A stretch of DNA of 63,983 nucleotides, the filler included. It is 12 parts of 12 records of this genome, joined end to end, with 100 filler letters (N's around TTAATTAATTAA, not from the genome) between each part and the next. Parts side by side here need not be neighbours in the genome. Positions count along the whole stretch, not along the records: positions 23,702 to 27,397 come from SRR7504441_10503; 11 more parts are not named here. The stretch is one strand, 5' to 3'. The notes beneath the pieces are model-generated. The model was not told the DNA's origin. It made no database searches and was given only the letters and a program-made list of their open reading frames with translations. Position 1 is the first letter of the stretch. Every line of letters begins with the position of its first letter. The translations under genes were made by a program, and so were the position numbers. Below, piece after piece: positions 7,090 through 54,304 of this stretch.

Positions 7090-7189
7090 NNNNNNNNNNN
7101 NNNNNNNNNNNNNNNNNNNNNNNNNNNNNNNNNTTAATTAATTAANNNNNNNNNNNNNNNNNNNNNNNNNNNNNNNNNNNNNNNNNNNN
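7090..7189. other. Artificial contig linker (N44-TTAATTAATTAA-N44)
   Basis: 100-nt N run containing a six-frame stop cassette. The identical design occurs 11 times in the window. Confidence 0.98.
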
Positions 7190-8442
7190 CCCTCACGTAG
7201 GATGCTCAGCCTGCAGGTGTCGCCTACGTACTTCTGCGAGACCAAGAAGGTGAACGATATCCGCTCGCCCTTGCTGCCCGCCCGCTCGGACCGGCTGGGC
7301 CGGCCGGGCACCGGAAGGAGATTGAGCCATCGTTTGATATCTTGACACCGTCCAGCTCGAGCAGCACGTCATCCGCCCGCAGGACCTATCCCCGCTCCGT
7401 ACAGCCCGACCACAGGTGCACCTCGGCGATCGGCGAAGTCGGGTTAACTCTTTTAATCCGGATTCCACTCTGTTTGGGAGCCATCGCGAGCGAGGAGCGC
7501 AGGTTATCGTTCTCTAGCGTTTGCCACTCGGCTGCGAGCCTGGGGAACCCGGTGTACCGGCCGTTCTGCTCCAGGTCGGTCAGGAAGTGCCCGATCACAG
7601 TAGTCGGGATTATGTAGCCAATGTTCTCGGCGTCGTCGCCCTTGAGTGACTGGAAGGCCACCCCGATGCAATGCCCGGTCATGTCAAACACCGGCCCGCC
7701 CGAGTTGCCCGCGTTGATCGCGGCGTCGATCTGGATCCCGAGCAGCGATGAGTGGTGCCCCTCGGTGTAGCCTTGCATCTCTATCCGCGAGACCACCCCA
7801 CTCGTCACACTGATCGTCTCTCCGCCAATTGGGTACCCGACCACCGTCACTGGGTCCTGCAGACTGGGCAGCTCCCCGAACTCGAGCGGGCGCAAGTCCT
7901 CCCAGAACTCGTCGTCCTCCACCGCCAGCACCGCCAGGTCGCACTCCATGCCCTGGGCCAGCCGTTAGTCCCAGCAGCACGGCCAGCGCGCCTGAGCCAC
8001 CACCCGGGCCAGATGCTTAGTGGGCGAGCCCCGCTTCTTGACCTGCGCCGCCCGTCTGAGCCGCGTGCTCCTGGAGGGGGGGGCGCCTTGACTTGGGTGT
8101 GGTGGTGGATGCAATGCGAGTTGGTCACTATCCGACGGCCTGCCGCCGCCTGACCCGCCGCCCGGTTCGGAGCGCACCGTGGATGGCGAAGCCGGAGCCG
8201 GAGGAGGAGTGCTGCCGCTTCATTTGCCATGGCAGCGAGTAGTTGGGCTCGGCGTGGGTGCAGTACACCTTGAGTACCGACTCCATCCAGGGGAAGTGGT
8301 CGATCAGATCGTCCAGCTCCTCCTCGTCCAGCTCTTCCCCTTCGCCGAGCGAGCTGCCCACTTGGATGAAGCTCGGAGGCGGCTGCTCCTGCTGCTTTCC
8401 CCCGCGCTTGTTCCGCCGCTGCCCCTTGGACGACGACCGCAT
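7190..8442 (-). CDS. DegP/HtrA-family serine protease (plant DEG9/DEG10-like), 3' truncated by contig end
   Basis: Motifs [27 protein letters not shown] (His), ECDLAVL (Asp) and [15 protein letters not shown] (Ser), followed by a PDZ-like region. Introns include 8043-8086 and 7953-7991 (both GC-AG). Confidence 0.92.
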
Positions 8443-8543
8443 CTCGACCTGAGAAGAGACCTCGGACCGGTCCCCCTGGCCCCGACCACACAGCAGCAAA
8501 AACTGCAGCCGGGCGCCGGAGGTTGGTACGAGCGGCGGCTCGA

Positions 8544-11500
8544 ATGACGAGAAAGAAGTCCGGGGGAAGGAGGCGGCTTGATGGGCTGGTCAGCGGCGGC
8601 ATGTCGGGCTCCTTGGCCGGGATCAGCAAGCCCAGCCGGAAGAAGAAGAAGAAGAAGAGCGGGGCCACCTTCGAGGAGACAGTGTACCGGTGCGCCGTGT
8701 GCAGGGTGGACAGCAGCGGCGAGACATCATTCCTCCAGCACCTGCAGGGCCGGGCCCACCGGGCCAAGAACAACGGCAAGCCGGGCTTTGCCGGGCTGAT
8801 CCCCAACGCGGCCGGTCTGATGCCGCACGTGAGCAGCCGGGTGCTCTCAAACAGGCCACCCGAGCAGGCCCCGCTGGAGATCGCCGGCACCGTCTCGGCC
8901 GCGGGCGAGGGCCGGCTGCAGCAGGTGCTCGACCAGATGCCCGCGCTCGATCGAGCCGCCGCTCAGCCTGCCCTGGCCCCGATCCGGCGGGCGCCAGCCC
9001 AGCCACGCAGGTCGGAGCAGCCGGCGATGGTTCCCCCGATGGCCGCCGCGGCCGGGGCGCACGCGGCCGGGCGGCGGGAGCTGCCGGTGTTTGAGTATCG
9101 GGCGCAGATCTTGGAGGCGATAGAGCGGCGGTCAGTGGTCGTGATCGAGGGCGCGACTGGGTGCGGCAAGACGACCCAAGTGCCACAGTTTGTACTCGAG
9201 CACGCCAACGCCACCCGGACCAGCTGCTCGATCATCTGCACCCAGCCCCGCCGGATCAGCGCCATGTCGGTGGCCGAGCGGGTGGCCCAGGAGCGCGGCG
9301 AGCCGTGCGGCGATGTAGTCGGGTACTCGATTAGGCTCGAGAGCAGGACGAGCGCGCGGACCCAGCTGCTGTTCTGCACCACCGGGATCCTGCTCAGGCG
9401 GCTCGAGTCGGATCCGGGGCTGCAGTCGGTGAGCCACGTGTTCGTGGACGAGGTTCACGAGCGCGGGGTCGAGAGTGACTTCCTGCTGCTGCTGCTAAAG
9501 GACTTGATCAAGGCCCGCCCGGACATCAAGGTGGTCCTGATGAGCGCCACCATCAACTCGCAGCTGTTTGCCGAGTACTTTGACGCGGTGAGCTTCAAGG
9601 TGCCCGGGCGCACCTTCCCGGTCCAAGCCGTCTACCTCGAGCAAGCCCTCGAGCTCACCAATCACCGGCTCAACTTCTCAGCTGAGTGGGTCAAGGGCTC
9701 GGCCGCCAACGGCAAGAGGAATCAGCCTGGCGCCAACAGCGAGCCGCAGCTGGAGTTGGCCCGACAGCCGGACTGCGGGCTGAGCCGGCCGGATCTTGAG
9801 CGGCGGTACCCTCATGTGTCAAGCAGTGTTTTGCAAGCGTTGGGAGCTCTGGACCCCGATGCTATCAACTACTCGCTGTGCGTGGACGTGATCGAGTGGC
9901 TGGTCGGCGGCGGGGCAGACAGCCTAGCCCAGCCCCAAGCTGGCAGCCGAGATCCGAGCAGGGAGCGGAGCAGGCGGAGGCGCAGGGAGCGCCATAGAAG
10001 CGCAGATAGGAGCGGCAGTCCAGATAGGCGGCGGCGGCGACGGAGGAGCCGGAGTCGGAGTGCGGGAGAGAGGCGCAGGCGAGACAGGAGCCGAAACAGA
10101 GATAGACGGCGCGGCGATGGCGAGGGGCGTGAAGCGGGAGAGGTAGATAGGCCGGAGAGGAGCACATCGAGGGACAGGAGGCGGCGGCGACGGAGGAGCA
10201 GAAGCCGAGATGGGGACGTGGAGACAGGCCGACGGGACAGGAGCCCAAGCAGAGAGAGACGACACCGTGGCGACCGCAAGGAAGCGGTAGCAGCGCCGAG
10301 GGCTGGGCTTCCGGGCTGTGATGCGATCCTGGTGTTTTTGCCTGGAGTGAAGGAGATCCAAAACTTGCACGAGAGCCTGCTCCGGTCTGGGTGCTTCCGG
10401 GGCAATTCGGAATGGTTGCTGCCCCTGCACGGTGGGCTGCCCCCGGAAGACCAGCGGAGAGTGTTCCAGCGACCGCCGCAAGGGACGAGGAAGGTAGTGC
10501 TGGCCACAAATGTTGCCGAGACTTCAATCACAATTGACGACATCGGATTCGTTGTGGACACGACCAGAATGAAGGAGACTCGGTACGATCCGGCTCGGCG
10601 GCTGTCGAGCCTGGAAGATGTGATGGTCAGTCGTGCCAATGCAAGGCAGCGGCGTGGCCGTGCTGGCCGGGTTGCCCCTGGTGTGTGTGTGCACTTGTTC
10701 ACACAGTACGTGCACGATCACATCGCGGAGGCCCACCAGGCGCCAGAGGTGAAGCGGGTGCCACTCGAGCAACTTGTTTTGCGCATCCACTCTCTGGGCT
10801 TGCCTGGCCGTGCGGCTGAAGTGTGTGCGAGGCTGCTGGAGCCTCCAGCAGAGGAAGCAGTCCGCAGGGCAATTGCAGAGCTGATCAGCATCGGTGCACT
10901 CACCCCTGGTGAGGGTCTCGAGTTGACGCCGCTTGGAGTGCACCTGTCGCGGCTGCCGGTCGACCCTCGTGTCGGCAAGCTGCTGCTCGTAGGCGCAAGC
11001 TTCGGCCCAGTTGCAGTGAACCAGGCGCTCACGCTGGCTGCCTCGCTCTCGGGCCGCAACCCATTCATGTCACCGATGGAGCGGCGAGAAGAGGCTGATC
11101 GTGCCAAGAGGAAGTTCTGCGTCGGCAGCTCGGGGCCGAGCGACCATCTGGCTGTGTTGAATGCTTACAACACGTTCGATCGGCTTCAGGGAGACGCCAA
11201 GTTTTCCTTCTGTCGCGAGAATTTTCTGGGGATTCGGAGCATGCAAGCAATCTCAGGGCTGAAGCGACAGCTGCTTGAGATTCTATCAGATGGCGGCTTT
11301 GTGCGTCCTGGGCTTCACTCTCGTGCTGTGGAGCGCGAGGGCGGCTATGACGACTCGGATGGTGTCCGCAGGGCGCTGGTTGGAGCAAGCATTGAACCAG
11401 AGCAGGATCCTGCGAGCCACCAAGCATTCATCACGGCACTTCTGTGCGCTGCACTCTTCCCACAGGTGGTCTCTGTTGTTCACGAGTCCAGTGGCAAGAA

Positions 11501-12094
11501 GAAGAAGGCGAGCACTGCTAAGCCCGGCCAGGCCAAGTTTTTAATCAGAGAGCCCGGCAGCGATGATCCGGTGCAGGTCAGCATCCATCCATCCAGCGTC
11601 GTCTCCAAGGTGAACCAGTGGCCAACTCCGTATTTGGTTTACCACGAACTCGTCCGCACAACCAAATTGTACGTGAGAGATGCTACTCCGGTCCCACCGC
11701 TCGCACTTGTGCTATTTGGAGGAAACCTCTCTGCAGGGAAACGGCAGAAGGCCACGAATGGGCTTGTCACCCTATCAGTTGATGGCTGGATCAAGTTTGC
11801 CGTCCCACAGCAGCTGCAGAGCTTGCTAGTTGAAACTCGGCTCCAGCTTGATGCTGTGTTTAAGCGCAAGATTGAGGACCCTTCGAGCCAGTTTGGCGCG
11901 GGTGAGGTTCTTCTGCAAGCGGTGGTGCAGCTGCTGGCAGATGCCTCGACATTGCCGCCTGCAGGGACCGGGCCGCCTCGCAATATGACCAAGGCTCAGC
12001 AGTGGGGCGAGCAGATGTCGATCAACGGCCGGCTCCAGAACCAGACAAGCGGGCACCCGGGCAGCAGCAGTGGATTAGTAGCACAGATGGGCGC
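8544..12094 (+). CDS. DEAH-box RNA helicase, DHX57/DHX36/DHX29 family, with N-terminal C2H2 zinc finger; 3' truncated
   Basis: Motifs [49 protein letters not shown] and QRRGRAGR, plus HA2 and OB-fold regions. CAVC...HLQGRAH zinc finger. Intronless over 3.5 kb. Confidence 0.93.
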
Positions 12095-12194
12095 NNNNNN
12101 NNNNNNNNNNNNNNNNNNNNNNNNNNNNNNNNNNNNNNTTAATTAATTAANNNNNNNNNNNNNNNNNNNNNNNNNNNNNNNNNNNNNNNNNNNN
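12095..12194. other. Artificial contig linker
   Basis: N run with TTAATTAATTAA. Confidence 0.98.
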
Positions 12195-17119: not shown

Positions 17120-17219
17120 NNNNNNNNNNNNNNNNNNNNNNNNNNNNNNNNNNNNNNNNNNNNTTAATTAATTAANNNNNNNNNNNNNNNNNNNNNNNNN
17201 NNNNNNNNNNNNNNNNNNN
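17120..17219. other. Artificial contig linker
   Basis: N run with TTAATTAATTAA. Confidence 0.98.
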
Positions 17220-23601: not shown

Positions 23602-23701
23602 NNNNNNNNNNNNNNNNNNNNNNNNNNNNNNNNNNNNNNNNNNNNTTAATTAATTAANNNNNNNNNNNNNNNNNNNNNNNNNNNNNNNNNNNNNNNNNNN
23701 N
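23602..23701. other. Artificial contig linker
   Basis: N run with TTAATTAATTAA. Confidence 0.98.
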
Positions 23702-25767
23702 CCCCCCCGCGACAACGTTGTCAGATCTCTGAATAGCCTACTACCTGGTACCTGGTACTTGGTACTCAAGAGCAGAAATCCCACACAAGTATTTCGATTT
23801 CGAAGCATGGAGCTTTTGGCTGCTGCCAAGGTTTTGACCGACGCGCAGCTGCTCGAGTACCACCTCAGGTTCGCGCTGTGCTCGTCCTCGGCCCAAGTGA
23901 CCGGATCCCGTGCGCTCTGCAACGAGGCTGCCGTGGCCGACTTCTCCCGAAAGTGGCGGGTGCGCCCGGGCTGTGTACCTGCCCCCCGAGTGCTCGGGTT
24001 TCAGGGCAGTCTGGTCCTCGACGGGTACATCGACAAGGCGGAGCTCGGGAGCAACAACACCATCCAGGATCTGCTTGACCGCGGGATCCAGATACCGGCC
24101 CAAGGGCTGCTCATCCACACCGGCCAGATCCCGCAACCCGGCGAGGCATCAGAGTACATCCTGGTGCAGGCCGCTGTCGGCCGGTCATTCTGCACTGAGG
24201 AGGAACCGGCCCGGACAGAGAACGCTGCCTCGCTCATCCCGGAAGGGTGCCCCCGGGGCTGTCGCGGGGAGGAGGCGGGGTAGGTACGACAGTGTCTGTT
24301 TCCCAGGGGATGGGGAGAGGGCGCGGCTGCGACGGATCCTGGAGAAGGAGGGCGAGGAGACGGCGGACGAGCCGGGTGGTGGGGACTGTGGTGGTGGGTG
24401 GTGACGGTGTGGCAGCTGAGGATCTGGTGAAGAGTCAGCCGAACAACTTTAAATTCCTCGTGACTGATCCTCGGCTGGTGCTGGCGGTCTCCTGGGTGTT
24501 GTACGAGCCAACGGACTCGACCCAGCTCCAGGCAACGGACTTGGGGGGCGTCTAATCCGGGGGGCGCAGGGCAGCTCTGGGGACCTTCATGCCGACGAGG
24601 CGTTTAAGCAAGCAATCTCTGCACTCGAGGGAGTTCCAGGCGGCGATAAGGCTATCGAACTGCTCCGGGCGGTGCGCTGGTCTAACGGAATAAATCTAAC
24701 GGACGGACAGCAACACCTGGCGGCCAACCCGCAGTTTGGGATGTCCGAGTACGGCAAGGTGCCGCGTGAGGGGGGATGGGGGTGCTAAGGGGGGGATTAG
24801 CCGTTTGAGTTCTACGACCCGATCCTGCAAGCCCCGGTGCGTGGGCCGGGGGTGTCGTAACTGATTCCAACGGACAGGTCTGTGTCCACGCCAAAATGAT
24901 CGGGTCGCACGCCACAGGAGAAAACGCTACGCACCAGCTGCTGCCAATCGGAGAGGCCTACAACGCAGCTCTGGAGGAGTCTCAGGCCGCCGACCACGAT
25001 TTACGGAAGCGGAAGGAGGCCATTTTGGAGCAGGTGATTTATTGATTAATATGGATTAATACCGGAGCAGCTCGGGCGAGTGGACGGACGAATCGCTGAG
25101 GTAAAGAAGAACTCAACTAGTGTGGAGGAGTCGATCTATCAGCTGCTGCAGGTTAACAGCAGCTTCTAATAAGGCAATCAGCTGTTAACGGCAGGAGGCG
25201 CTGGTGCAGTTGCAGGAGGAGTCGCAGAAGAAGATTCTGATGCTGCTCGCCGAAGAAATGGAGCTCCGGCGGCAGGTTAACAGCAGCTTCTATAAGGAAA
25301 TGAGCTGTTAACGGCAGCTTCGGCTGGTCCAGCAGGAGGAGAGTTTTCTGGCCCAGGAGCAGACCGAGCTGAAGCCGCTATCGTTCCTAACGGCTTGGAA
25401 CCAACATCAGCGGCTTCGGACAGACAAGTTCCACATGGTGTGCCGCCGATCAATGGCTCTAACTGAATTCCAACCGACAGGTCCCGTTCACCCCGAGCAC
25501 TGTGATGGTCAAGGCCGACATCCAGCTGGTAGGACGCGTCCAGGCAACTGCTTCCAACAGAAATTCCGTTACCGCTCGCAGGTGGTTCTCGCCGGCGGAG
25601 CCGATCAGTTCTCGACCATTTCGCAGCTGCCGACTGCGGCACAGCCTGTCCAGTCAGCAAGCTCGGCTCTGCCAGACGCTTCTGGCCCGGTGGTGGCGCC
25701 GCCCAGCTCTGCGCCACATCCTGCGGGTGGCACCCCCCGGCTTAAGGGGGGGCAATCGGCGGTGTAG
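23702..25767 (+). CDS. Protist PARP-like/B-box/coiled-coil protein region (5' truncated); probably the 5' half of the RasGAP gene
   Basis: The spliced frame gives ILVQAAVGRSF...IPEGYDSV and EFYDPILQAPVCVHAKMIGSH...THQLLPIGEAY, then a long coiled coil ELRRQL...FLTAWNQH. It has about ten 37-43 nt introns. Confidence 0.65.
25152..25194 (+). mobile_element. Introner-like micro-intron family A, copy 1 (43 nt, 9-bp inverted repeat)
   Basis: gttaacagc...gctgttaac-ggcag; 40 of 43 positions identical to 25276-25317. Removing it restores the coiled-coil frame. Confidence 0.6.
25276..25317 (+). mobile_element. Introner-like micro-intron family A, copy 2 (42 nt)
   Basis: Same inverted repeat as copy 1. 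It contains an in-frame TAA, so it must be spliced for the frame to continue. A cggcag direct repeat lies at the exon end and the intron end. Confidence 0.6.
25438..25480 (+). mobile_element. Introner-like micro-intron family B, forward copy (43 nt)
   Basis: Core 25448-25476 is 28/29 identical to the reverse complement of 25927-25955. Its 3' end is also shared with intron 24837-24877. Confidence 0.55.
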
Positions 25768-25769
25768 GG

Positions 25770-27332
25770 ATGGTGTCGAGTAACGATTTTTGGTCTGAGA
25801 CGTTGCAGCATCGGAGGGAAAGTGCCGGAGTGTTTACTAATTCTCGGTTAACGGATTTCGGGGCCAAGTCAACGGCTGAAACGGAGGAGATGAAGCTGAT
25901 GAAGCTGCTGATGGAGCCGACTCTAGCGGTTGGAATCCAGTTAGAGCCATTGATCAGGGCCATAGGTGGTCAAAGGGCTATGTGCAGTCATTGACATCCA
26001 GGACGCGGACGAGCTGGCCCAGGTGCTGAAATCCGTCTGAATTCATTGATTGTCAACGAAAATCCCAACCGACACCGTTGGGATAGGCGTTTGTGCGGAT
26101 CTTTGAGTGCGAGGGCAACACGATCTCGCTGATTCGGACAGCGATATCTCGCGAGGTGCGGCATTCAACTGTGATTAATTCGTAATTCATATTAATATAT
26201 TGTAGGTGCGTGCAACTGAGACGGCGAATCTGCTGCTCCGCTCAAACTCGATGGCGACGAAGATGATGACGAGTTACTCTCAGATGATTGGGGTGCCATA
26301 CCTAAGGTGGGTGGCCGGTGATGGCGAGAGCTGAGCCGGCGGCAGGTACACGTTGTGCCCGATTGTGGAGCAGGTGCTCAATAGTACTAGTGTATATTGT
26401 TACAGAGTATAGTATGTTAGCGTATAGTGTATCGAGTATAGTATGTTAGCGTATAGTCAGAGGTCCGACTGTGCCGCAGATATGCCGCGAGCCACTCAAG
26501 TACGAGGTGGACGCGACGCGGCTCGGTGGCGATCACAATGTGTCAATCAACTTCAGGAACTTGATCGGGGCCTGCCAAGGTTTGCTTGACACAATCAGGT
26601 CGACCCTCGACAAATGCCCGCCCCCGTTCCGTCACATCTGCAACCATCTGCACACCCAAGTCCAACGCCGATTCCCAGATCGCAGGCACACAGCGATCGG
26701 TGGCTTCATCTTCCTACGGTACACGGCTAACTGACGCGGCTAACAGACTTTTCAGGTTTTTCTGCCCAGCGCTGGTGTCTCCGGACTCGTTTGGGTTGAT
26801 GGACACGGCGCCGTCTCGTGAGGCAGTCAACTGTTAGTAATCAATAATTGATATCAATATTGCAGGCGCGGCACGTGCTGACGTTGATTGCCAAGACGAT
26901 GGTCAACATGGCCAACGGAATCCCGTTTGGGACCAAGGAGCCGGCGATGAAAGAGATGAACGAATTTATTCTGCACAATCTGAACAGAGTTTCGGACTTT
27001 TTTGACGAATTAGCTACAATTCCAGTCGACCAAATTGAGCTCAGCCAGCAGACCAGCATCGCGGAGGAGGCCCGGACTTCCTGCCTGGCCACGGTCCAAC
27101 GGCACCTCAAGCGGCACCAGGAGCGGCTGCGGGAGATGCTCCGGAAGGAGGCCGCGCAGGGCGGGAGCCAGCTGTCGCTGCACGAGTTTGACGCTGCGCT
27201 GTCGCAGGTGCTTAATAGTGTTTAGTGTGTAGAGTATAGTATAGAGCCAGCTGTGGCTGGCTGAGTTTGACGCTGTGGCAGCCGGATCTTGCGGCCTCGG
27301 GGAGCGTGTTCAGCCCGAGCAGAATCTACTGA
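25770..27332 (+). CDS. RasGAP domain (neurofibromin/GAP1-like), multi-exon
   Basis: The spliced product contains LLRSNSMATKMM (arginine finger), YEVD, GGFIFLRFFCPALVSP, LTLIAKTMVNMAN and FGTKEPAMKEMNEFI. Confidence 0.92.
25929..25965 (+). mobile_element. Introner-like micro-intron family B, inverted copy (37-nt GT-AG intron in RasGAP)
   Basis: Removing it joins EPTLA to VVKGLCAVIDIQDADELAQ in the RasGAP frame. The sequence is the reverse complement of the 25438 intron core. Confidence 0.55.
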
Positions 27333-27397: not shown

Positions 27398-27497
27398 NNN
27401 NNNNNNNNNNNNNNNNNNNNNNNNNNNNNNNNNNNNNNNNNTTAATTAATTAANNNNNNNNNNNNNNNNNNNNNNNNNNNNNNNNNNNNNNNNNNNN
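27398..27497. other. Artificial contig linker
   Basis: N run with TTAATTAATTAA. Confidence 0.98.
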
Positions 27498-27569: not shown

Positions 27570-30500
27570 TCAATCAGCTGAAGGTGGGTTGAAAAGCCCA
27601 CGACCAAAGTACTCAGAGACCACCGAGAAGCCATCACCCTCCGACTCGAGCTGATGGAAGAACTGCTCATGGTGCTCCACACTCTTCTCTAGCTTGTGCC
27701 GCCGCTCCATCACCTTGCGGTTAGCATCAGCACATAGCGAGCACTCCAGCTCGTTGTCAATGACACACTCCTGTCGAGCCAGGCTGAGGGAACTTTAGGC
27801 GTGGCATCGTCCACCTGGTGGAAAGAGTGACCACAAAGAAAGTGCACAGCTGGCAAGTCGAGCTTGGCTGAGCACGCAGAGCATGAGGTGTCCGAGAACA
27901 CCTTGAGCGTGGCTCGATACGAGCAGCACGGCAGGTTGCACCTTAGCCTGGGTCTGCAGCTTGTGAATGTCATGTCTCATCCGCTGTGTCTCGGCTGAAA
28001 ACGTGGCTAAACCAAAGCCAGGAGGGCAAAGGCACCGCGGAGCTCGTTGATGATAGTTTGGTCCTCTTCGATCAGGTTCCGTTCCTCCTGCAGATGCCTG
28101 GTGATGTAGTCCTTCACGACCGCCAGAGGCGTCTTATCATTCTGTGATAGGATCTGGACGAGCAACAGCGGCGGCAGCAGCCGCTCTCGCTCGATATTGT
28201 TGAGCACGTCCATAATCCAACGATGACAGTCCTCCCGCTCATCCTTGAGAGCAAAATAAGAGAGCACCTGTCATGTCATTTAGCCCAGATGGGACCGACT
28301 TGGGCTGCCTGAACCCATAGGTTGGGGTCAATCCTTCCAAATTTTTTGCATGCAGCCATGATTGCCGGGTACTCGTTGCTCTCCATGTGGTGCTGCCGGC
28401 CAGTGAGGCCCAAAGCCGTCTGCCCGGCTGACCTGAACTATCTCAGTGTAGAGCTTGAGCTTCTCATACAAGAAGAGCACTCCAGGCTTGAAGTCAAACG
28501 TCTGGCCTCAGTCAGCACCAACCCAGCCCGGTGCTCGCACCTGCACCAAGCACAGTGCGTGGTCGTCATCATACTTGGCTGCCGGGTTTTGGAGCAGAGT
28601 CAGTGCTGCTTCGTGGTTTTTATCCCTGATGAGCTCCTCTTGCTTGCGTGCATTCTCCATTGCCTCCGCATCCTTCTCAAGTGCCGACTTCTCAATATCC
28701 TCCGCTGGGCAGGCATCAGCGCCACCACAGTCTTAGCGGCCACCTGGGCAGCCTTCCTCAATCCCGGCTTCGCTGTGCTTGGCATCATGCTTCTCCATAT
28801 CTGCCTGCCACTCAGCCCCACGCGTCGAGCCTGGCACGCACCGCTGACTGTGAGCACACCCACAGGCTCGAGCGCATGCTTGTCCTTCTCCTTACTGCTC
28901 ACCAGATCATGGTCACGCAGGTATCTGTGCCCCAGTCAGTCCACCCAGCCTCAGCTTGGGGCTACAGTTCGAGCAGTGTATTGTACACGATCGGGTCGCA
29001 GTCCGGATTGTGCCGGATGATGTGCTCCAGAAAGCTCTGCAGTTCAATAGGATGGTCCACGAATATGTGGATAAAGTCCTGTGGGCAGCTCCGCTGCTCG
29101 ACTGCCGAGCTCACTGCCGACGGCTTGGCCTCGTCGACTTCCTCGGACACTGCGCCGCGCGCCGCTGTGCTCCCACTCAGCTTGCTCGAGTCTTCAACAG
29201 AGTTCTGCAAGGCCAGTGGGCTGGCTGCGGAGCTGGGAGCTTACCATTGGCTTGTAGTCTGTGCAGAGCTCCATCAAGAACTTGGTGGTGATCTCTGGCG
29301 CCTCATGCATCAGCAGCTTGCCATACTTTTTCATGTTCTTGTCGGCTTGATTGAAACTAAGCCGGCGAATGTACTCGAGGCCCTGACAGCCCAGAGTCAA
29401 CCACCCGACAAAAGCTGGCGGATGCCTTGTGATAGTTTGCCATGTCCTCTATCTGCATCTTGAGATACCAATTGTGCTGCTTGTACTTCTTGGCCAGCGA
29501 GGAGGCATAGTTGTGGTAGTTTGCTTGCCGGCACACCCGGATCGCTGCCCGCTCATCAAACCGAGCTGCCCAGGGTCAAGCGACCTGTCTCGACATCGAA
29601 TTCCTGGCAGTCGTCGTTCACAAACTTCTTGAGCTTGCTGTCGTCCTTGAGCTTGGTGTAGCAGTTGAGCAGCAGCGTGGTGTGATCTGGGTTGGCCCGT
29701 TTGACTTCGTGAAGCTTCTCAAGAAAGTCAGTCAAGTTCTTGATCCGCTGCGCATCCAAATACTTCCGGATCACATACGACGGCTCAATCCGCTCCACAA
29801 TCTGCCGCCGGATATGGCTCGCCAGGCTAGTGCAGGGGCGCGGCCACCTTGATGTACTGTTCCATCGCGCCTTTGAAGTCTCTTTTGACAGAGTACAGGT
29901 GGTCGCCATATTTGAGATGGATGTCGAACCGGTGAGACGCGTCAAACTGCTTGCTGTCCTCCGCCAGCTTGAGCGCCACAGTATAGAAACCCTGCCGAAG
30001 GCTCACTCGCCGCCGCTCGGTTGGTTGGCCTTCTTGTAGAGCATTTCCAGCTTGGTCTGTACGTCCTTCTCGGTCAGCTGAAGCATCTTTCGATCGGCGG
30101 TTAGCACGAATATCTCGGACCACTCTGAGACAATCTGTGTGACCTTGCCTGCCCGGGCTGTCAGCCATTGCCCACTCCGGCCTATTTGCCTGTGAGAGTG
30201 AGGGAATACGCTACAAACTTGTTCCTAACCTACATTCGGATCAGAGCCAGGCGCGCGGGCCCGGCACGTCATAGATGTTCAGATGGTCGTCGTCGCCCGT
30301 GTTCTGCACCTCGACCAGGTAATTCTTAAACCTGCCAACCCCTCAGCCCAGCGCTGTGCTCTGCCCATCACCAAAACAGAAGCTTCCGCTCGCCCTCGAA
30401 CGCGTAACAGCCCCGCCGGCCTGCTGGTGGCTCAGCGCCGGCGGGCCCCGGCCACACACCGTCCGGTCCGATTTCGAACACGCCGTCGGCTCTCCCTATG

Positions 30501-31263
30501 AACATGATCCTATCCCAACTCATCACCGCACATCGGTGCTGACATCCTGCGCCCGAGCTCACTCGCTTATCTTAGCACAGCCAGCACCGTGCGGGTGCAG
30601 GTCCTCGCAGACCGGCGGGCCGCGGGCCATCAGGTGGTGCGCCTTCACGCTGTTGGTGGTCGCGACCAGCAGCGTGTGGGCGGCGTCCGCTACGGCCTCA
30701 CTACAATATCTGCACCGCGACTCAGCCTCGCCAGTCGACTTCCACACCCGATCCCCGTGACTGGAGCTGGCCCGTGCTGCAGCTCGAACGGCTTGATCGC
30801 CCCGCGCTCCCTCAGGAAATCGCCTCGGTACATCAGAACCACCCCATTCTCCAGACCGACCGCGATGCACGTCAGGTCGTCGGTCGCCGAGAAGCAAGTC
30901 ACACTCACGTTCACTTTGTCGTTCGAGTCGCGCACCGGCAGCACCTGCCGCCGGGCTCGAGTGCCCAGCCCACCGACCGGTCGAGCACCTTCTGGCACAG
31001 CGGCGAGCCCTCCCGGTTCACCTGGGGCCGCTCGGCTGTGGCCTGTGGGGCGAGGGCTGGGCACCTTGTCTAGCTTCCATATCTTGATCTGGAACCGCTT
31101 CTCCGGGCCGTCGTCCCCGATCGAGATCATCACTTTCTGCGACTCGATCCGCTGCAGATGCGAGACGAACTTATTGTGGGCGTAAAACTTGCTGTACACT
31201 GAGAAGTTCCTCTTTACGAACGAGATCCAGCCCTCCTTGTCGCCGAAGATCAGAAACCCGCCG
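27570..31263 (-). CDS. VPS11: Vacuolar protein sorting 11 (HOPS/CORVET subunit), 5' truncated, intron-dense
   Basis: Motifs IKIWKLDK, YGDHLYS, EPSYVIRKYLDAQRIKNLTDFLEKLH and HTTLLLNCYTKLKD; RING motif CSAC...LDLPAVHFLCGHSFHQ; C-terminal DGFSVVSEYFGRG. Confidence 0.95.
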
Positions 31264-31860: not shown

Positions 31861-33777
31861 CTAAGGGCTGTCCACAGTATTCACCATCACAGTGGACTCT
31901 CCCAAGCACGCATCGACCACCCGTTGGCCGGAGATGGGCCGCTGTTGCCTGAGGTCAATCCAATCGTAGCTGGCGGCCTCGTCTGCATTCAAGTGCAGCT
32001 CGTAATCGTGCAGCGCCTTGAGCCCTTCTTTGTGCGAGATCGAGAAAATTCCCATCCCGAGCTTCTTGCACCGGCCAAACAGGTCTTGCTCAACGGCGGG
32101 GGCGATCCCGTTGGTGCACTCATCGAGCACTGCATACCGTGGTCTGTGATGGAACAGCCTGGCAAACGCCATTCGCTGCTTCTGCCCGGGAGAGAGCGCG
32201 GTGTCCCATTCTAGTCGGTCGTCCAGCGATGGGTGCACATTGTCGCATTTGAAGCCCTCGAGATGTGCGTACTGGAGTACAGTGGTCAAGTCGGAGTCCT
32301 TCCCACCGCCGGCTTGCCACTGCTCGACCGACTGAGGGTAGATGATGATCTCTCTCAGAGTGCCAATCGGTACAAAGTTGACCTGAGACAGAAAGTAAAT
32401 CTTGTCGGCACTCGGCTTGCGGATTGTGCCGCCGCAGAGTGGCCACAGCCCACAAAGCACTCGGAACATAGAGCTCTTGCCGCACCCGTTGTCCCCCGTC
32501 ACCATCACCCGCTCGCCCGGCTGGATCGTGAACGAGAGCCGTTGGACCAGCAGCACTCCATCCGGCTTGTAGACTGCTACGTTGTCAAACTCGATAAGTT
32601 CGGCCTCCTCAAACTGTGCTGGGTTGCCGGACTCGGCCTGGAGTTCCGAGGCCTCAGCCAGCACCGGCATCCGCTCACGCAGGCCCTGGAGCAGCTGCCC
32701 GACTCGGGTGGTGATCCCGACCAGCCTGCCGACTCGCCTCTGCAGCTCAAACAGCGCCAGCACCGCCTGTGCCAGCGACTCCATCACCTGTCTGGTCTGG
32801 ACGTAATAGGCTGCAATTTTGGCGGCTGACCAGTGTGCCATTCCATTCTGGTTCCGGAGCACCGGCCGCAGCGTGAGAAGGAATCCTATCACCGAAGCAA
32901 AGTACTTGTTCACGTAACCCTGGAGTGCGTCAGCCACAAACTTCTGGTGGAGAGTGCTGGTGATGTGCCCACTGATGCCCTCATAGTGCCCGTCCAGCAC
33001 CGCCTTCTCCGGCTGCTCACCTCGCATGAACGCGACCATTTCGCTATTCTTGATCAGGTTGGCGTGCGCGGCCCGGAATCTGCCCTCGAGCGCCTGCTCC
33101 CGCTGGGCCAACTTGCCAAACGCGGGCATCACCAGCGCCGAGAACGCGGCAGCCACCGCAAACCACGAGTGCATCCCCAGTGGGCCGGCCAGTCCGAGCG
33201 TCTGACCCAGTTGGATCGAGAAGATGACAAAGTCCACCACCGGCTTGAGGCTCTGCGAGTAAACATCCGCCAGGCTGCTGCTGAACTTTTCGATGTCGTC
33301 GGCAATCAGCTGGTCGCTGTTCTCAAACTTGTCCCGGCCGACCCAGTTGGCCTTGTAGTAGTTCATCCGCTCCATCAGCAGCTTGTGCGCCTTGGCGGTG
33401 AGCCTGTCGCGCACGTGCAGCCCCAGCAGCCCGGTGTACAGCTTGAGCGCGGCATTGAGCCCAGCGGCCAGGATGGTGACCACGCCGAACTTGATGATGT
33501 TGAGGAACACGTGGCGCCACTGCTTGTCGCAGAAGAAGGCGATGGTCTCGCCCATGTTGCGGGCCACCCACAGCGACATCAAGCTGCGGCAGAGCAACGA
33601 ACTGGTCAGCGCCGCTAGGTCCAGCCCTTCGCGGGCGCCCATCCCGTCCTTCAGCACCGCGGCCAGTGTGCGGAAGAAGGAGGCAGTCACCTTGGGCTTG
33701 GCCTGGGCCGAAGGCTTGACCAACAGCTTGGAGTCGGCCTGGTCCGAAGGCTTGACCAACAGCTTGGAGTCCGCCAT
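31861..33777 (-). CDS. Peroxisomal ABC half-transporter, ABCD family
   Basis: EAA-like LEGRFRAAHANLIKNSEMVAF, Walker A GDNGCGKSS, signature LSPGQKQR, Walker B AVLDECT, and SISH. Intronless, 638 aa. Confidence 0.93.
   Translation of the reverse strand: MADSKLLVKPSDQADSKLLVKPSAQAKPKVTASFFRTLAAVLKDGMGAREGLDLAALTSSLLCRSLMSLWVARNMGETIAFFCDKQWRHVFLNIIKFGVVTILAAGLNAALKLYTGLLGLHVRDRLTAKAHKLLMERMNYYKANWVGRDKFENSDQLIADDIEKFSSSLADVYSQSLKPVVDFVIFSIQLGQTLGLAGPLGMHSWFAVAAAFSALVMPAFGKLAQREQALEGRFRAAHANLIKNSEMVAFMRGEQPEKAVLDGHYEGISGHITSTLHQKFVADALQGYVNKYFASVIGFLLTLRPVLRNQNGMAHWSAAKIAAYYVQTRQVMESLAQAVLALFELQRRVGRLVGITTRVGQLLQGLRERMPVLAEASELQAESGNPAQFEEAELIEFDNVAVYKPDGVLLVQRLSFTIQPGERVMVTGDNGCGKSSMFRVLCGLWPLCGGTIRKPSADKIYFLSQVNFVPIGTLREIIIYPQSVEQWQAGGGKDSDLTTVLQYAHLEGFKCDNVHPSLDDRLEWDTALSPGQKQRMAFARLFHHRPRYAVLDECTNGIAPAVEQDLFGRCKKLGMGIFSISHKEGLKALHDYELHLNADEAASYDWIDLRQQRPISGQRVVDACLGESTVMVNTVDSP
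33700..33771. repeat. 2 x 36-bp coding tandem repeat at the ABCD N-terminus
   Basis: ggcctgg(g/t)ccgaaggcttgaccaacagcttggagtc occurs twice with one mismatch. It encodes DSKLLVKPS(D/A)QA. Confidence 0.9.
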
Positions 33778-50569: not shown

Positions 50570-53500
50570 GGCCGAGCCGTAGAATCTGTGGCTGAGATCG
50601 GCCGGTGCAGCATGCGGACGATCGATCTCGGGACGAGCAAGAAGCAGTTCCCGGCCAAGGGGATCCTGCAGGCGGTTGGGTTCAGAGATACGCTCGCCCG
50701 GATGGTCTACGACCGCCTCTTCATGTGGATCATCGAACAGTGCCCAACTGAATCTAACAGAATCTAACGGATCCACAGGTGCTCTCAGCAGCTGCAGACG
50801 GGGGCCAATCTCAGGGGAGACGTTTTCCTGGGAGTTTTGGACATTTTCGGGTTTGAGTTCTACGAAAACCACCAGCTTCGGCCCAAGGACATGCAGGCAT
50901 GCGGGACTGGGGAGGCGTTGGCGATGGGTTTGTGAATGCAGGTTGTGAACGGACTTGATCAGCTGAACATCAACATTTGCAACGAAATGCTCCAACAGCA
51001 GGTCCCACCAGAGTTTCTAATCTAGGACCGACTGGCCGCAGTTTGTTCAAGTGATTTTTGGGCTCGAAAAGTACAGCTACGACGTCCAGAACGTTAAGTT
51101 CAACTTCGAGGGCTACGCCGACAACAAGGTCCTCACCTAGCACAGCACGCTCAGCAGATTACAGGTCGCTTGCGACTTCCTCTCATCCAACAAAGGCCCG
51201 CTGCTGGTGGCCCTCCGAGAACCGGCCAAGAAGCGCAAGACCGACAAGGCCGGAGACGAGTCTTTCCTGGAGGCGCTCAAGCGAACGGTGCCCGCACAGC
51301 GAGAGCGTGTTACTAGCGACGGTGTCAGGTCAAGTCCGAGAAGCAGTTCAACGGACAAGACGACAGCAAGCGGAAGAACCACCTTGCGGTGCTCTAATCG
51401 GACCACAGACCGGCTGAGCGCGGGCAGGTATACTTGGACTTTGACACGTTGCGGGGCCGGCGGGCGTTCAATGGATTGGATGGCGGGGCTTATGGCAACC
51501 GCGAGATTGACGGCAAGGTCGCCCCGGGGCTGCTTATGGGCTGTATGATGCGCCTGCAGGTGAGTGACAAGGAAGTGAAGGACATCAACGAGTCGTTCGT
51601 GGAGCGAGGCGCCGGAAAGTGCCCGGTGACATGCGTGAATCCCAGCCGTTTGACTGGCCGGGCAGTCATTTGGGATCCGCCACTACGCGGCCGAGGTTGC
51701 TTACGACTGCCGAGGTAACTGACAGCGGAAGCCCCAAACCTGACCGGCTGCTGGGCAGGCTGGTGCGAGAAGGATAAGGACAACCCAACAGACGAGATGG
51801 CAATTTGCCTGCAGGCGCTGTTATCTGCTGGCATGGCTGAGTCTGCTGGCTGCAGCACTCGGGTGACAGCCTCTTCCTTTCAAAGATCTTCTCCGGCGGA
51901 GCTTCGGCCGACGCGCCCGGGGTGACTGCGGCGTTCTGCGGCTCGCTGCACAGCTTGATCGACACGCTGAGCGCCACCGATATGAACTTTGTCCGTTGCA
52001 TCAAGGCGAGCAACCCTCTGGCGCCTCGGATCTTCCAATCGGCGCTCGTGCTCAAGCAGCTCAAGTGAGGCTATAAATAAACTTCTCTGTGCTCAGAGCG
52101 GGGCAGGTACACTGGCATGCTCGACACTCTCAAGATCCGCACGTTTGGGTTCCCGATCCAGAAATCCTACCAGGTCGACTGGCGCGTGACAGTGTTAAGA
52201 CAGTAACTGCAGGACTTCGTCGACTGGGCCAAGGTGCTCTGTCCGGATATACCCAAGGAGCCGCTCGACGCCGCCACCGAGGGGATGGTCAGTCACATGG
52301 GCTCCGCCTACTGCGCCCAGGTCCGTCACACCTTCCTAATCGGGCAATCGGGCCCAACAAGGCCCGTCACACCTTCCTAATCGGGCGACGACCGCAGGTG
52401 TTTGGAGAGCTGCCCCAGTCCGACCAATTCTTCAAGAAAACTGTCGAGGGCGGGCAGCAGGTGCCGCGTTGAATCCCAACGGCTGTGACACGGGCTCAGG
52501 ATAAGTGCGCGATCGTGCAAGGCAAACCGGCCAACCCTGCCAAGACCGCCCCGGTGCGCCGACCTAGCCTGGCAGCATCCTCACTGGGTGGCAGCTGGTC
52601 ATGATGCGTGACTGGTTCTTCCGCGGGCTTGACAAGAAGCGCATGCTGCTCCTCCGGTCTTAACACTGATTAAGCCTGGACTGACGGGCTGTGCCAGCGA
52701 GTACATGGACGTGGCGCAGGCCGCAGTCAAGATGGCTGTTCGCACTTACCTCTGGTATGGGGTCAAGCAGAAAGGCTGCAGGATTCTTGGCCCAATGCTC
52801 CGGTGATCGCTCGACCCATTACAGTCTTGACTGGCGGCGGTCAGCGGTGCGTTGGTCACAGAAGAATATCTGAACAGCAAGTGGCGCTTCCTCGGGAAGA
52901 ACGCACGCACCCAGCTGGTGCTGCTGATCCGCGCCCAGATCGCTCGGAAGCAGTACCAAGTCGAACGGGTGAAGAATCCCCAACGGGCTTAACGGACACT
53001 AACGGACTCTCAGGTTAAATTCTTTGAGGCGTCCAACCGGCAGCTCGTAGTCGGTTTGATCCACGCGACTGTGCAGCGCCAGATGTGCGCCCCGGATTAA
53101 TCAGTGTTAAGGCGGATTGTCGAAGGTACTACGAAGCCAAGCTTCGATGGGCGGACATGCTAGTTCGAGAAAAGGAGATCGCTGCGCTCCAACAGCAGGA
53201 CAAGTATGCTCGCCAGCTCAACGCCGAGCGCGAGGAGGAGGAGATGGCTGCAATGGATGTGACCAATCCCCAGCTGTTTCGACTGACCGAATCTGGCACA
53301 GGAGCAACAGCTGATGCAGAAGGAAGAGGCGTACGTGCATGCTCTGGTCGACGCCCGGTGAGCGGGTCGGTTAGGATTGTGGCTTATTAGCGGCAGATTC
53401 TTCGAGGAGATGCAGATGCGGAAGCAGAAGGAAATTGACCTTTGTGAGGCTAAATACCGAGTGAGTTGGCTGGTCGAAGCTGTCTAGTGCTCGCATTATA

Positions 53501-54304
53501 GTCGTCTAGCGGCTGTCTCCGTGTGTATATCATATGCAGTGGCATGTAGCGGTGACCGCGGCTGGGGTTGTTGCAGGAGGCCCAAGTAGAAATCGATCGG
53601 ATGCAGAAGCAACAGGACGACCTCGACGAGCTCGACGAGCTCTTCGACACCCAGAACGGTCACCTGCCCAGAAGCCCCAACCGCCCATCGTTTGCAGGCA
53701 AGCAGCTGCTGGCGTTTATGAAGCAAGTGCTCGCCGACAAGGAGCGCAAGTGGCAGGAGACTTGGGCCAGCCAATTCGGATGGGCAGTCCGGACCTACCA
53801 GGCACATTCGCTTAATACAACACTGTGTAACCGGGGTCTCAGCTCGAAAACCGAGATGACGTCATGAAAGAGCACCCGTCTCTGCCGCCTCGCCCGCGCG
53901 GGGCCGATGATAGCAAGCAGGAGGTCCGGGCCTGGCGCGAGTACTTGTTCGGGGAGCAGGCGGCGGTCCAGGTTAACTCGATCTGCCCGATTAGGAAGTG
54001 TTAAGCTATGTAACTGCAGATGGAGGCGCTCGACTTGTACGAGGAGCGAGCTAACGAGGACCTGAAGATCCTCAAGGAGCAAGCCCATTCGTGGGAGCCT
54101 ACGTCCCCAGAGTCCCCAGTCCGGTCGGAGCCGGTCCCGCTCGAGCCCGAGTCCCCGATGGGAGCCGAATCTCGTCGATTTTTGAGCGTTGCGATGGACT
54201 GCAGCGTGGAGGTTGAGGCGATGGAGCCGGCCGTGCGGGCGGCTCTCAAGCGATGCATCGCCAAGCTGATCAAGGTCAACACGAGCAAGGTGGCGCTCGG
54301 ATGA
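50570..54304 (+). CDS. Divergent myosin heavy chain (motor C-terminal half, neck, coiled-coil tail), 5' truncated, about 20 micro-introns
   Basis: The spliced frame gives RDTLARMVYDRLF, GVLDIFGFE (switch II), QLNINICNEMLQQ, FGIRHYAAEVAY, FVRCIK and QLKYTGMLDTLKIRTFGFP. Confidence 0.92.

Follow-up and report, generated by a model that had tools for sequence, protein, structure and literature searches.

The gene considered here encodes a RasGAP-domain protein and lies on a 3.7-kb contig (positions 23702–27397) of a 63,983-base stretch of DNA, hereafter the window. The window consists of 12 separate contigs of 3.2–12.4 kb each, joined by linkers, and is not one molecule; genes on either side of a linker have no physical linkage, and the contigs may derive from a binned assembly. 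Two very short introns of the RasGAP gene, designated A and B, contain the same 29-nucleotide (nt) core in opposite orientations, and the origin of this inverted pair is the subject of the present analysis. Positions count along the window, and the features are collected in Table 1.

The RasGAP Gene and Its Introns

The gene model was built by hand, contains 16 curated introns and is preceded by three further introns predicted upstream at 24247–24569. Exon 26480–26716 matches the Pfam RasGAP family (E 2.7e-09), and a search of JGI data with this exon retrieved three intron-less open reading frames (ORFs), P0001–P0003, at 92%, 80%, and 80% identity, which are taken to be transcript-derived. P0003 comprises 721 amino acids (aa) on a contig of 2,679 nt and covers the whole modelled region; used as a query in turn, it returned only itself and one distant match at 28%. 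When the 16 introns are removed, the spliced translation is identical to P0003 in 403 of 659 alignment columns, and none of the 16 junctions has a gap. Two corrections of the model were taken from this orthologue, namely the treatment of 25544–25581 as a GC–AG intron, which keeps the residues VGRVQ, and the setting of intron 26023–26086. GC–AG introns thus number two in this gene, one with VGRVQ kept in the orthologue and the other (26823–26865) with an RNA joint, while a 53-nt GT–AG alternative to the former, 25529–25581, is likewise in frame.

Contigs from three RNA runs (X1, X7, and X8) and one DNA run (X2) were aligned to the focal contig. The RNA joint of intron 26719–26755 (37 nt) was found in all three RNA runs, which come from three marine metatranscriptome studies, whereas those of introns 26823–26865 and 27208–27281 (74 nt) were each found in one run. 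Moreover, a DNA contig is collinear through introns 26307–26345 and 26374–26479.

Table 1. Positions of the introns, cores, genes, and linkers discussed in the text.
Feature	Position	Strand	Remarks
RasGAP gene, modelled part	24603..27329	+	Host gene, RasGAP-domain protein; Pfam match, orthologue P0003, RNA for three introns
Intron A	25438..25480	+	43 nt, GT–AG, phase 0; core forward
Core, forward copy	25448..25476	+	29 nt, with CTAAC branch-like motif
Intron B	25929..25965	+	37 nt, GT–AG, phase 0; 5' GT from inverted core
Core, inverted copy	25927..25955	-	28/29; final 2 bases (CG) belong to the upstream exon of intron B
Intron, forward relative	24837..24877	+	3' half related to the 3' part of the core, 22/24 columns
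Intron with core piece	26023..26086	+	14-nt forward core piece (26061–26074, 13/14), then its own near-complement; hairpin ATCCCAAC..GTTGGGAT
Direct sibling, hairpin-shaped	25152..25194	+	Partner 25276–25317; 47 nt, 93.6%
Direct sibling of 25152–25194	25276..25317	+	
Older direct sibling of 26823–26865	26156..26205	+	Full-length likeness
GC–AG intron, sibling of 26156–26205	26823..26865	+	RNA joint skipping 43 nt, run X1
Intron with inverted 21-nt core	52657..52697	+	Core 52659–52679 inverted relative to 53091–53111; repeat finder 90%
Intron with partner of the 21-nt core	53085..53125	+	
Intron from internal tandem duplication	52321..52397	+	Core CTTCCTAATCGGGC inverted in 53972–54019, 19/20 columns, one gap
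Mosaic intron	53972..54019	+	Inverted piece of 52321–52397 and direct copy of the 3' end of 52174–52212 (20/23 columns)
DEAH-helicase ORF	8370-12146		1,258 aa, uninterrupted
ABCD-transporter ORF	31861-33777		638 aa, uninterrupted
Linkers	7090-7189, 12095-12194, 17120-17219, 23602-23701, 27398-27497, six more		44 N + TTAATTAATTAA + 44 N

The Inverted Core of Introns A and B

A search of both strands of the window for the 29-nt core found it in two places, once exactly and once with a single mismatch on the opposite strand, which confirms the inverted match of 28 of 29 positions described in an earlier note on this DNA; no third copy with at most three mismatches was found in the window. Two matches occurred in none of 100 dinucleotide-preserving shuffles (shuffle mean 0.00), and the pair attains an E value of 2.3e-06 when the window is compared with itself by blastn. 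A repeat finder lengthens the inverted repeat to 36 nt at 89% (25441–25476 and 25927–25962, 450 nt apart). Outside the core, 5 of 10 further intron bases are alike, which is not counted as significant, and the homology is secure over the 29-nt core only; its extension to the whole introns or into the exons, based on by-eye likenesses of 5/10 and 9/13 bases, was not relied on. The note had also pointed to a third intron, 24837–24877, with the same 3' end as intron A, and the two indeed share TAACTG(A)ATTCCAAC.GACAG/GTC in 22 of 24 columns, counting the first three exon bases (after the slash).

By their sequence and by the alignment with P0003, introns A and B are genuine very short spliceosomal introns. 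Their removal leaves gap-free junctions with the orthologue (KFHM/VPF for intron A and EPTLA/VVKG for intron B), and the retention of either one leads to a premature stop, which bears out the claim that the 37-nt segment 25929–25965 is an intron required for the reading frame. The pair is very unlikely to have arisen by chance, from common splice signals or through an error of assembly. It is true that the assembly is fragmented and that the match of the third intron is in part made up of signal, with a branch motif like CTAAC and a CAG acceptor. However, splice signals cannot yield 28 identities in 29 positions of a reverse complement, the shuffles and the E value argue against chance, and the segment of 37 nt starts with GT and ends with AG exactly where its removal restores the gap-free alignment.

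The exons around introns A and B differ from each other and are conserved coding sequence in the alignment with P0003. Since the same holds for the exons between and around the sibling introns, which are different and conserved in the orthologue, segmental duplication of exons with their introns is ruled out. Moreover, an inverted copy cannot be produced by tandem exon–intron duplication or by reverse splicing into the sense transcript itself, and we therefore infer a copying step at the DNA level, or one in which a nucleic-acid template acts at the DNA; the argument of the earlier note to this effect, directed against tandem exon duplication and reverse splicing into the same transcript, was judged sound.

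The further proposal of that note, the insertion (by transposition or templated repair) of a bidirectionally spliceable unit of ~40 nt that serves as an intron in both orientations, was not supported in the form put forward. Both copies of the core do sit in introns, but the core provides no ready-made splice sites for the two directions. In intron A it stops 10 nt and 4 nt short of the boundaries, and neither splice dinucleotide of this intron falls within it; at intron B it takes in 2 nt of the upstream exon, and the GT of that intron is the reverse complement of the AC in CCAAC. Only one of the four splice dinucleotides is thus located within the core, so the shared unit does not carry its splice sites both ways.

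Same-Gene Clustering of Sibling Introns

The relationship was placed in a wider context by means of a Viterbi gene finder, whose codon table was derived from 11 long ORFs and whose splice matrices were based on the 16 curated introns; it predicted 104 introns in 19 gene segments of the window. Twenty introns longer than 90 nt, mostly doubtful bridges, were left out, and the resulting set of 84 includes the curated introns of the focal gene and the three predicted upstream of them. These introns have a length mode of ~40 nt and donors that mostly begin with GTG. Three genes are intron-dense, namely the RasGAP gene, a gene at 27606–31262 (−) and a myosin-like gene at 50588–54298 (+), in which two exons match Pfam Myosin_head below its curated cut-off, at positions that are collinear in the profile.

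All 84 introns were aligned locally against each other in both orientations. The best pair, 25152/25276, is direct (score 30), followed by the inverted pair A/B (22.5), the direct, full-length pair 26156/26823 (16.5) and two inverted pairs of the myosin-like gene, 52615–52697/53085–53125 and 52321–52397/53972–54019 (16 each), whereas the best score in 20,916 shuffled comparisons was 15. Scores of at least 16 were reached by 5 of 482 same-gene pairs and by 0 of 3004 between-gene pairs (all five top pairs within genes, hypergeometric P 5e-05), and shuffled same-gene sets (30 shuffles) contained a mean of 0.03 such pairs, with a maximum of 1. Inversion is seen in three of the five top pairs, and the myosin-like gene, which is found on another contig, accounts for two of these. 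Independently of any annotation, a self-blast of the whole window returned nine repeat pairs, all nine within one contig and at most about 510 nt apart. The relationship between intron cores is one at the DNA level, independent of orientation and short in range: cores of 12–45 nt reappear, directly or inverted, in further introns of the gene that contains them, and some introns, such as 53972–54019 and 26023–26086, are mosaics. Since random dispersal predicts an excess of between-gene over same-gene pairs of about 6:1, while none and five were observed, respectively, the same-gene clustering suggests local copying rather than dispersal. As a separate observation, both members of each of the five sibling pairs always have the same phase, with one pair in phase 2.

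In the RasGAP gene, the likeness of introns 25152–25194 and 25276–25317 reaches both intron boundaries but does not extend into the exons, and the 81-nt exon between them is unlike its neighbour and conserved in the orthologue. Both introns contain the arms GTTAACAGC..GCTGTTAAC, fold with a z of about −3 and end in a 3' GGCAG that repeats the upstream exon end.

In the myosin-like gene, the first 12 bases of intron 52657–52697, GT included, are the exact reverse complement of 52190–52201, which lies within intron 52174–52212. Intron 52321–52397 (77 nt) contains a duplication of 27 nt at 96% with a period of 41, the second unit of which starts with GC instead of GT, as if an intron of ~40 nt had been doubled in place.

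The motif [TC]CCAAC[CG]G offers a weak hint of an older and wider relatedness of introns, or of an intronic signal. Seven of its 17 occurrences fall in modelled introns, though these make up a few percent of the sequence; the intronic sites are 24866, 25469, 25934(−), 26064, 26082(−), 52475, and 52979, usually preceded by AT, and two of them belong to the myosin-like gene.

Mobile-Element Signatures and Complementarity

The A/B core could alternatively belong to a dispersed, multi-copy family of introners or elements resembling miniature inverted-repeat transposable elements (MITEs), inserted in either orientation with local hopping, for which the window would be too small. There are precedents, since introners in either orientation are documented in Polarella glacialis and, as cited there, in Aureococcus, in the part of the report that was available (bioRxiv 10.1101/2020.10.14.339549), and median lengths as low as 30 nt are given for introner families in the accessible portion of another (PMC9860276). 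Moreover, the arms, folding, and GGCAG repeat give the direct pair 25152/25276 a MITE-like appearance, and the intronic bias of the [TC]CCAAC[CG]G motif, extending to the gene of another contig, would fit a dispersed family as well. However, terminal inverted repeats (TIRs) are absent from introns A and B, which fold no better than shuffled sequences (z +1.25 and +1.33). Direct repeats at the boundaries of introns, examined as target-site duplications (TSDs), averaged 2.90 against 2.77 in a donor/acceptor swap control, that is, nothing beyond the splice consensus. To this are added the single splice dinucleotide within the core, the lack of any further copy in the other ~60 kb of the window and the restriction of all strong intron matches to single genes. 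A dispersed family is hence regarded as an unlikely but not negligible origin, also in the form of a transposon with strong local hopping, and the mobile two-way unit of the earlier note is unproven and, on present evidence, less likely than local copying.

With respect to the intron set as a whole, a mean folding z of −0.09, with 8 of 84 introns below −2, rules out that introns are in general hairpin or TIR elements, pair 25152/25276 being the exception. The likeness of introns A and B to their own flanks is low (scores 8.0 and 6.5), and the idea that the 3' tail of intron B is a copy of AGGGCTATG just downstream, with a score of 6.5, was not supported.

Larger collections were scanned with a 20-mer from the core, which matched three loci in JGI metagenome contigs, one in GTDB genomes and none in IMG/VR, all four of them unrelated. 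Two of the JGI loci (L001 and L003) represent one pseudogene of a long interspersed nuclear element (LINE) reverse transcriptase sampled twice, the third (L002) is another unrelated stretch, and the GTDB match is an unrelated archaeal contig. Since these collections do not contain the locus of the organism itself, the scans say nothing on copy number and are no test of a dispersed family. Positions 1900–2200 of L001, identical in L003, correspond to a degraded LINE-type reverse-transcriptase frame with YADDTQIY nearby, and its resemblance to the core is a chance match.

A different explanation, and an improbable one, is that the complementarity of introns A and B is kept by selection, their pairing in the pre-mRNA looping out three exons and thereby controlling whether this block is skipped, in which order the introns are removed or whether back-splicing occurs. 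If the pairing were of a docking/selector-like kind, several forward copies could share a single inverted partner, and each of the two genes does contain one inverted member and about three forward ones. The predicted A:B duplex has an energy of −51.3 kcal/mol, the core is 28/29 identical against 5/10 in the adjoining bases, and a transcript in which the donor of A is joined to the acceptor of B would be in frame and stop-free, giving 527 aa and dropping the least conserved linker. Nevertheless, in-frame skipping of this kind is expected by chance owing to the predominance of phase 0 (32 of the 48 introns in the models of the three dense genes, with 4 in phase 1 and 12 in phase 2). The duplex would also bury the branch region of A and both the 5' splice site and the branch region of B. 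Neither skipped nor circular RNA was seen in the four runs, whose contigs do not reach this region. Moreover, the equally good direct siblings cannot pair, so copying alone explains the pattern, and pairing, even if true, concerns the maintenance of the complementarity and not its origin.

A Probable Local Copying Process

The favoured reading, to which we assign a probability of roughly 0.58, is that an intron core was copied locally as DNA over a few hundred bases, in the opposite orientation and within the same RasGAP gene, as part of a wider process. Introns A and B are best read as a variant of same-gene intron duplication and not as a demonstrated dispersed introner. Since the direct siblings (25152/25276 and 26156/26823) are as good as the inverted ones, a single copying process without an orientation rule would account for all of them.

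The most likely engine would be the repair of a break, or a switch of template during replication, in the course of which intron sequence from nearby is copied. Synthesis could be templated on DNA, by snap-back or in trans, or on the RNA of an excised intron still at the locus, and selection would then retain only those inserts that splicing removes. In Daphnia, the repair of breaks is known to give rise to introns. For introns A and B, source and copy are about 450–490 nt apart and inverted, with a 2-nt overlap (CG) at one junction; the same two bases, shared by exon and copy at the junction of B, would fit priming by microhomology, albeit weakly. The inverted copy works as an intron because the core supplies both a GT donor (GTTGG, the reverse complement of ..CCAAC) and a plausible branch-like site (TTGATC, the reverse complement of GATCAA), while the 3' AG is located in adjoining sequence and is not clearly part of the copy. 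The order of copying, the enzyme pathway and the distinction between a new intron and a remodelled old one are matters of inference.

Several points weigh against this reading. Firstly, contig depth is zero from 24198 to 26181 in all four runs, which leaves the junctions of A and B without RNA coverage, and the relatives identified are intron-less ORFs. Secondly, the 84-intron set derives from an ad hoc finder trained on the focal gene, and some of its models are surely wrong; moreover, intron 52615–52697 of the myosin-like gene was cut by hand to 52657–52697 after the match had been seen, on the grounds that the 42 nt removed could be translated in frame as coding sequence. Thirdly, indiscriminate copying of nearby sequence should also give exon-like introns, yet only 1 of the 84 (27208–27281) resembles a nearby exon (score ≥12; 1 observed against 0.93 expected), and the local-copying model therefore needs a further element, either selection or a template specific to introns. 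Finally, 64 kb of genome were examined, and zero outside copies in ~60 kb still allow hundreds genome-wide.

Source Organism and Other Introns of the Window

The ABCD-type transporter, a conserved gene on another contig, has as its best named relative that of the cercozoan Mataza sp. D1 (61% identity), and pieces of the focal contig are present in marine metagenomes and metatranscriptomes. On this basis, the source is treated as an uncultured marine eukaryote with no close relative among the references. No Rfam family matched anywhere in the window. The density of introns is very uneven, with two long ORFs devoid of introns (Table 1) against ~19 introns in 3.5 kb of the RasGAP gene (23837–27329), and this could reflect either gene-specific intron gain or contigs of more than one organism.

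Some further introns of the RasGAP gene have features of their own. Intron 27208–27281 consists of ~36 nt rich in TATAGT and, after these, a repeat of the end of the upstream exon (27165–27196 against 27244–27275, 88% over 32 nt), its 3' CAG copies the CAG that precedes the donor, and the whole looks like an insertion with a long target duplication. Intron 26374–26479 (106 nt) contains an exact 24-nt tandem repeat (26405–26428 and 26434–26457). These two introns share their first 12 bases (15/16 with the preceding GCAG) and TATAGT-rich pieces. Runs of 4–7 G or C occur in introns 24247–24283, 24532–24569, 24759–24800, and 25727–25767 (e.g., GCTAAGGGGGGGAT and GCTTAAGGGGGGGCAAT), which may represent another gene-local intron family or G-run splicing enhancers.

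Comparison with Known Systems

Same-gene intron duplications (SGDs) are a named class in fungi, where their origin has been explained by segmental duplication or by transposition inside a single transcript, according to the portion of the paper that was available (Collemare et al. 2013, PMC3609843). As in the present case, the fungal introns described there are near-identical, limited to one gene, few in number and without unusual folding energy, and about half of them show no duplication of the exons on either side (PMC3609843). In contrast, three of the five strongest pairs of the window are inverted, which excludes both of the ascribed routes, whereas orientation is not mentioned in that portion of the fungal study (PMC3609843); moreover, the copies found here are often partial cores or mosaics and not whole introns.

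Introners and introner-like elements have been described in Micromonas, Aureococcus, Polarella, Symbiodinium, and others, in families of 5 to over 2,000 copies each, as far as the available parts of these reports extend (PMC9860276, PMC3879977, bioRxiv 10.1101/2020.10.14.339549; copy numbers from PMC9860276). Like the introns of the window, they are sequence-related through insertion at the DNA level, and some classes in these accounts create introns whichever way round they insert, with the target providing one splice site or both. They differ in having many copies in unrelated genes, whereas no between-gene copy was seen within the 64-kb window, and in being alike from end to end of the element, whereas introns A and B are alike in the core only and show no TIR or TSD signature. 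Symmetrical proliferating stwintrons of the Hypoxylaceae, in the available part of their description, likewise lack TSDs (PMC8469720).

The pattern of the window also resembles that of templated break-repair inserts of the polymerase-theta type or arising by fold-back, which, in the part of the source at hand, are short (about 5–35 nt), are taken from nearby in direct or inverted orientation and are sometimes patchworks with at least 2 nt of junction microhomology (PMC11724301). Unlike in plain templated repair, the templates here seem restricted to intron sequence. Templated repair is, moreover, a mechanism and not an intron family, and the likeness is one of sequence pattern alone.

With regard to marine picoeukaryotes, the BOC1 region of Mamiellales, an outlier of low GC content, is similar in that many introns of 40–65 nt crowd some genes while others have none; according to the accessible portions of these papers, the BOC1 introns are AT-rich (<43% GC) singletons unlike other introns (PMC3491373, PMC3879977). 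Identity with BOC1 was rejected, as introns A and B have GC contents of 53.5% and 48.6% (0.535 and 0.486), they are not singletons, and no named relative is nearer than a cercozoan at 61%. The literature searched, which did not extend to most subscription journals or to supplements, yielded no account of inverted sibling introns within one gene.

Implications for the Origin of Introns

The origin of new spliceosomal introns is still debated. The documented large-scale route is that of dispersed introner transposons, while duplicates within the same gene have so far been credited to reverse splicing or segmental duplication, and both of the latter routes are ruled out for introns A and B by an inverted sibling that is still spliced. 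Taken together with the clustering within two genes, the inverted sibling points to local copying templated on nucleic acid, in either orientation.

Beyond this single case, a bolder proposal may be put forward, tentatively and in the knowledge that it is probably not correct in full: an undescribed and ongoing route of intron birth or remodelling, in which mini-intron cores of 12–45 nt would be copied within a gene in either orientation, giving rise to siblings and mosaics, and the resulting duplexes of 20–36 bp may steer the skipping of blocks of exons. Such a route, e.g., the repair of breaks with excised-intron RNA or neighbouring intron DNA as template, would be distinct from both introner transposons and reverse splicing. 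If this holds on the full genome, the organism would provide a natural system for determining how often random short insertions become introns. Furthermore, the minimal signals that an intron of ~40 nt requires in each orientation, as well as the effects of intron–intron duplexes on splicing, would become measurable.

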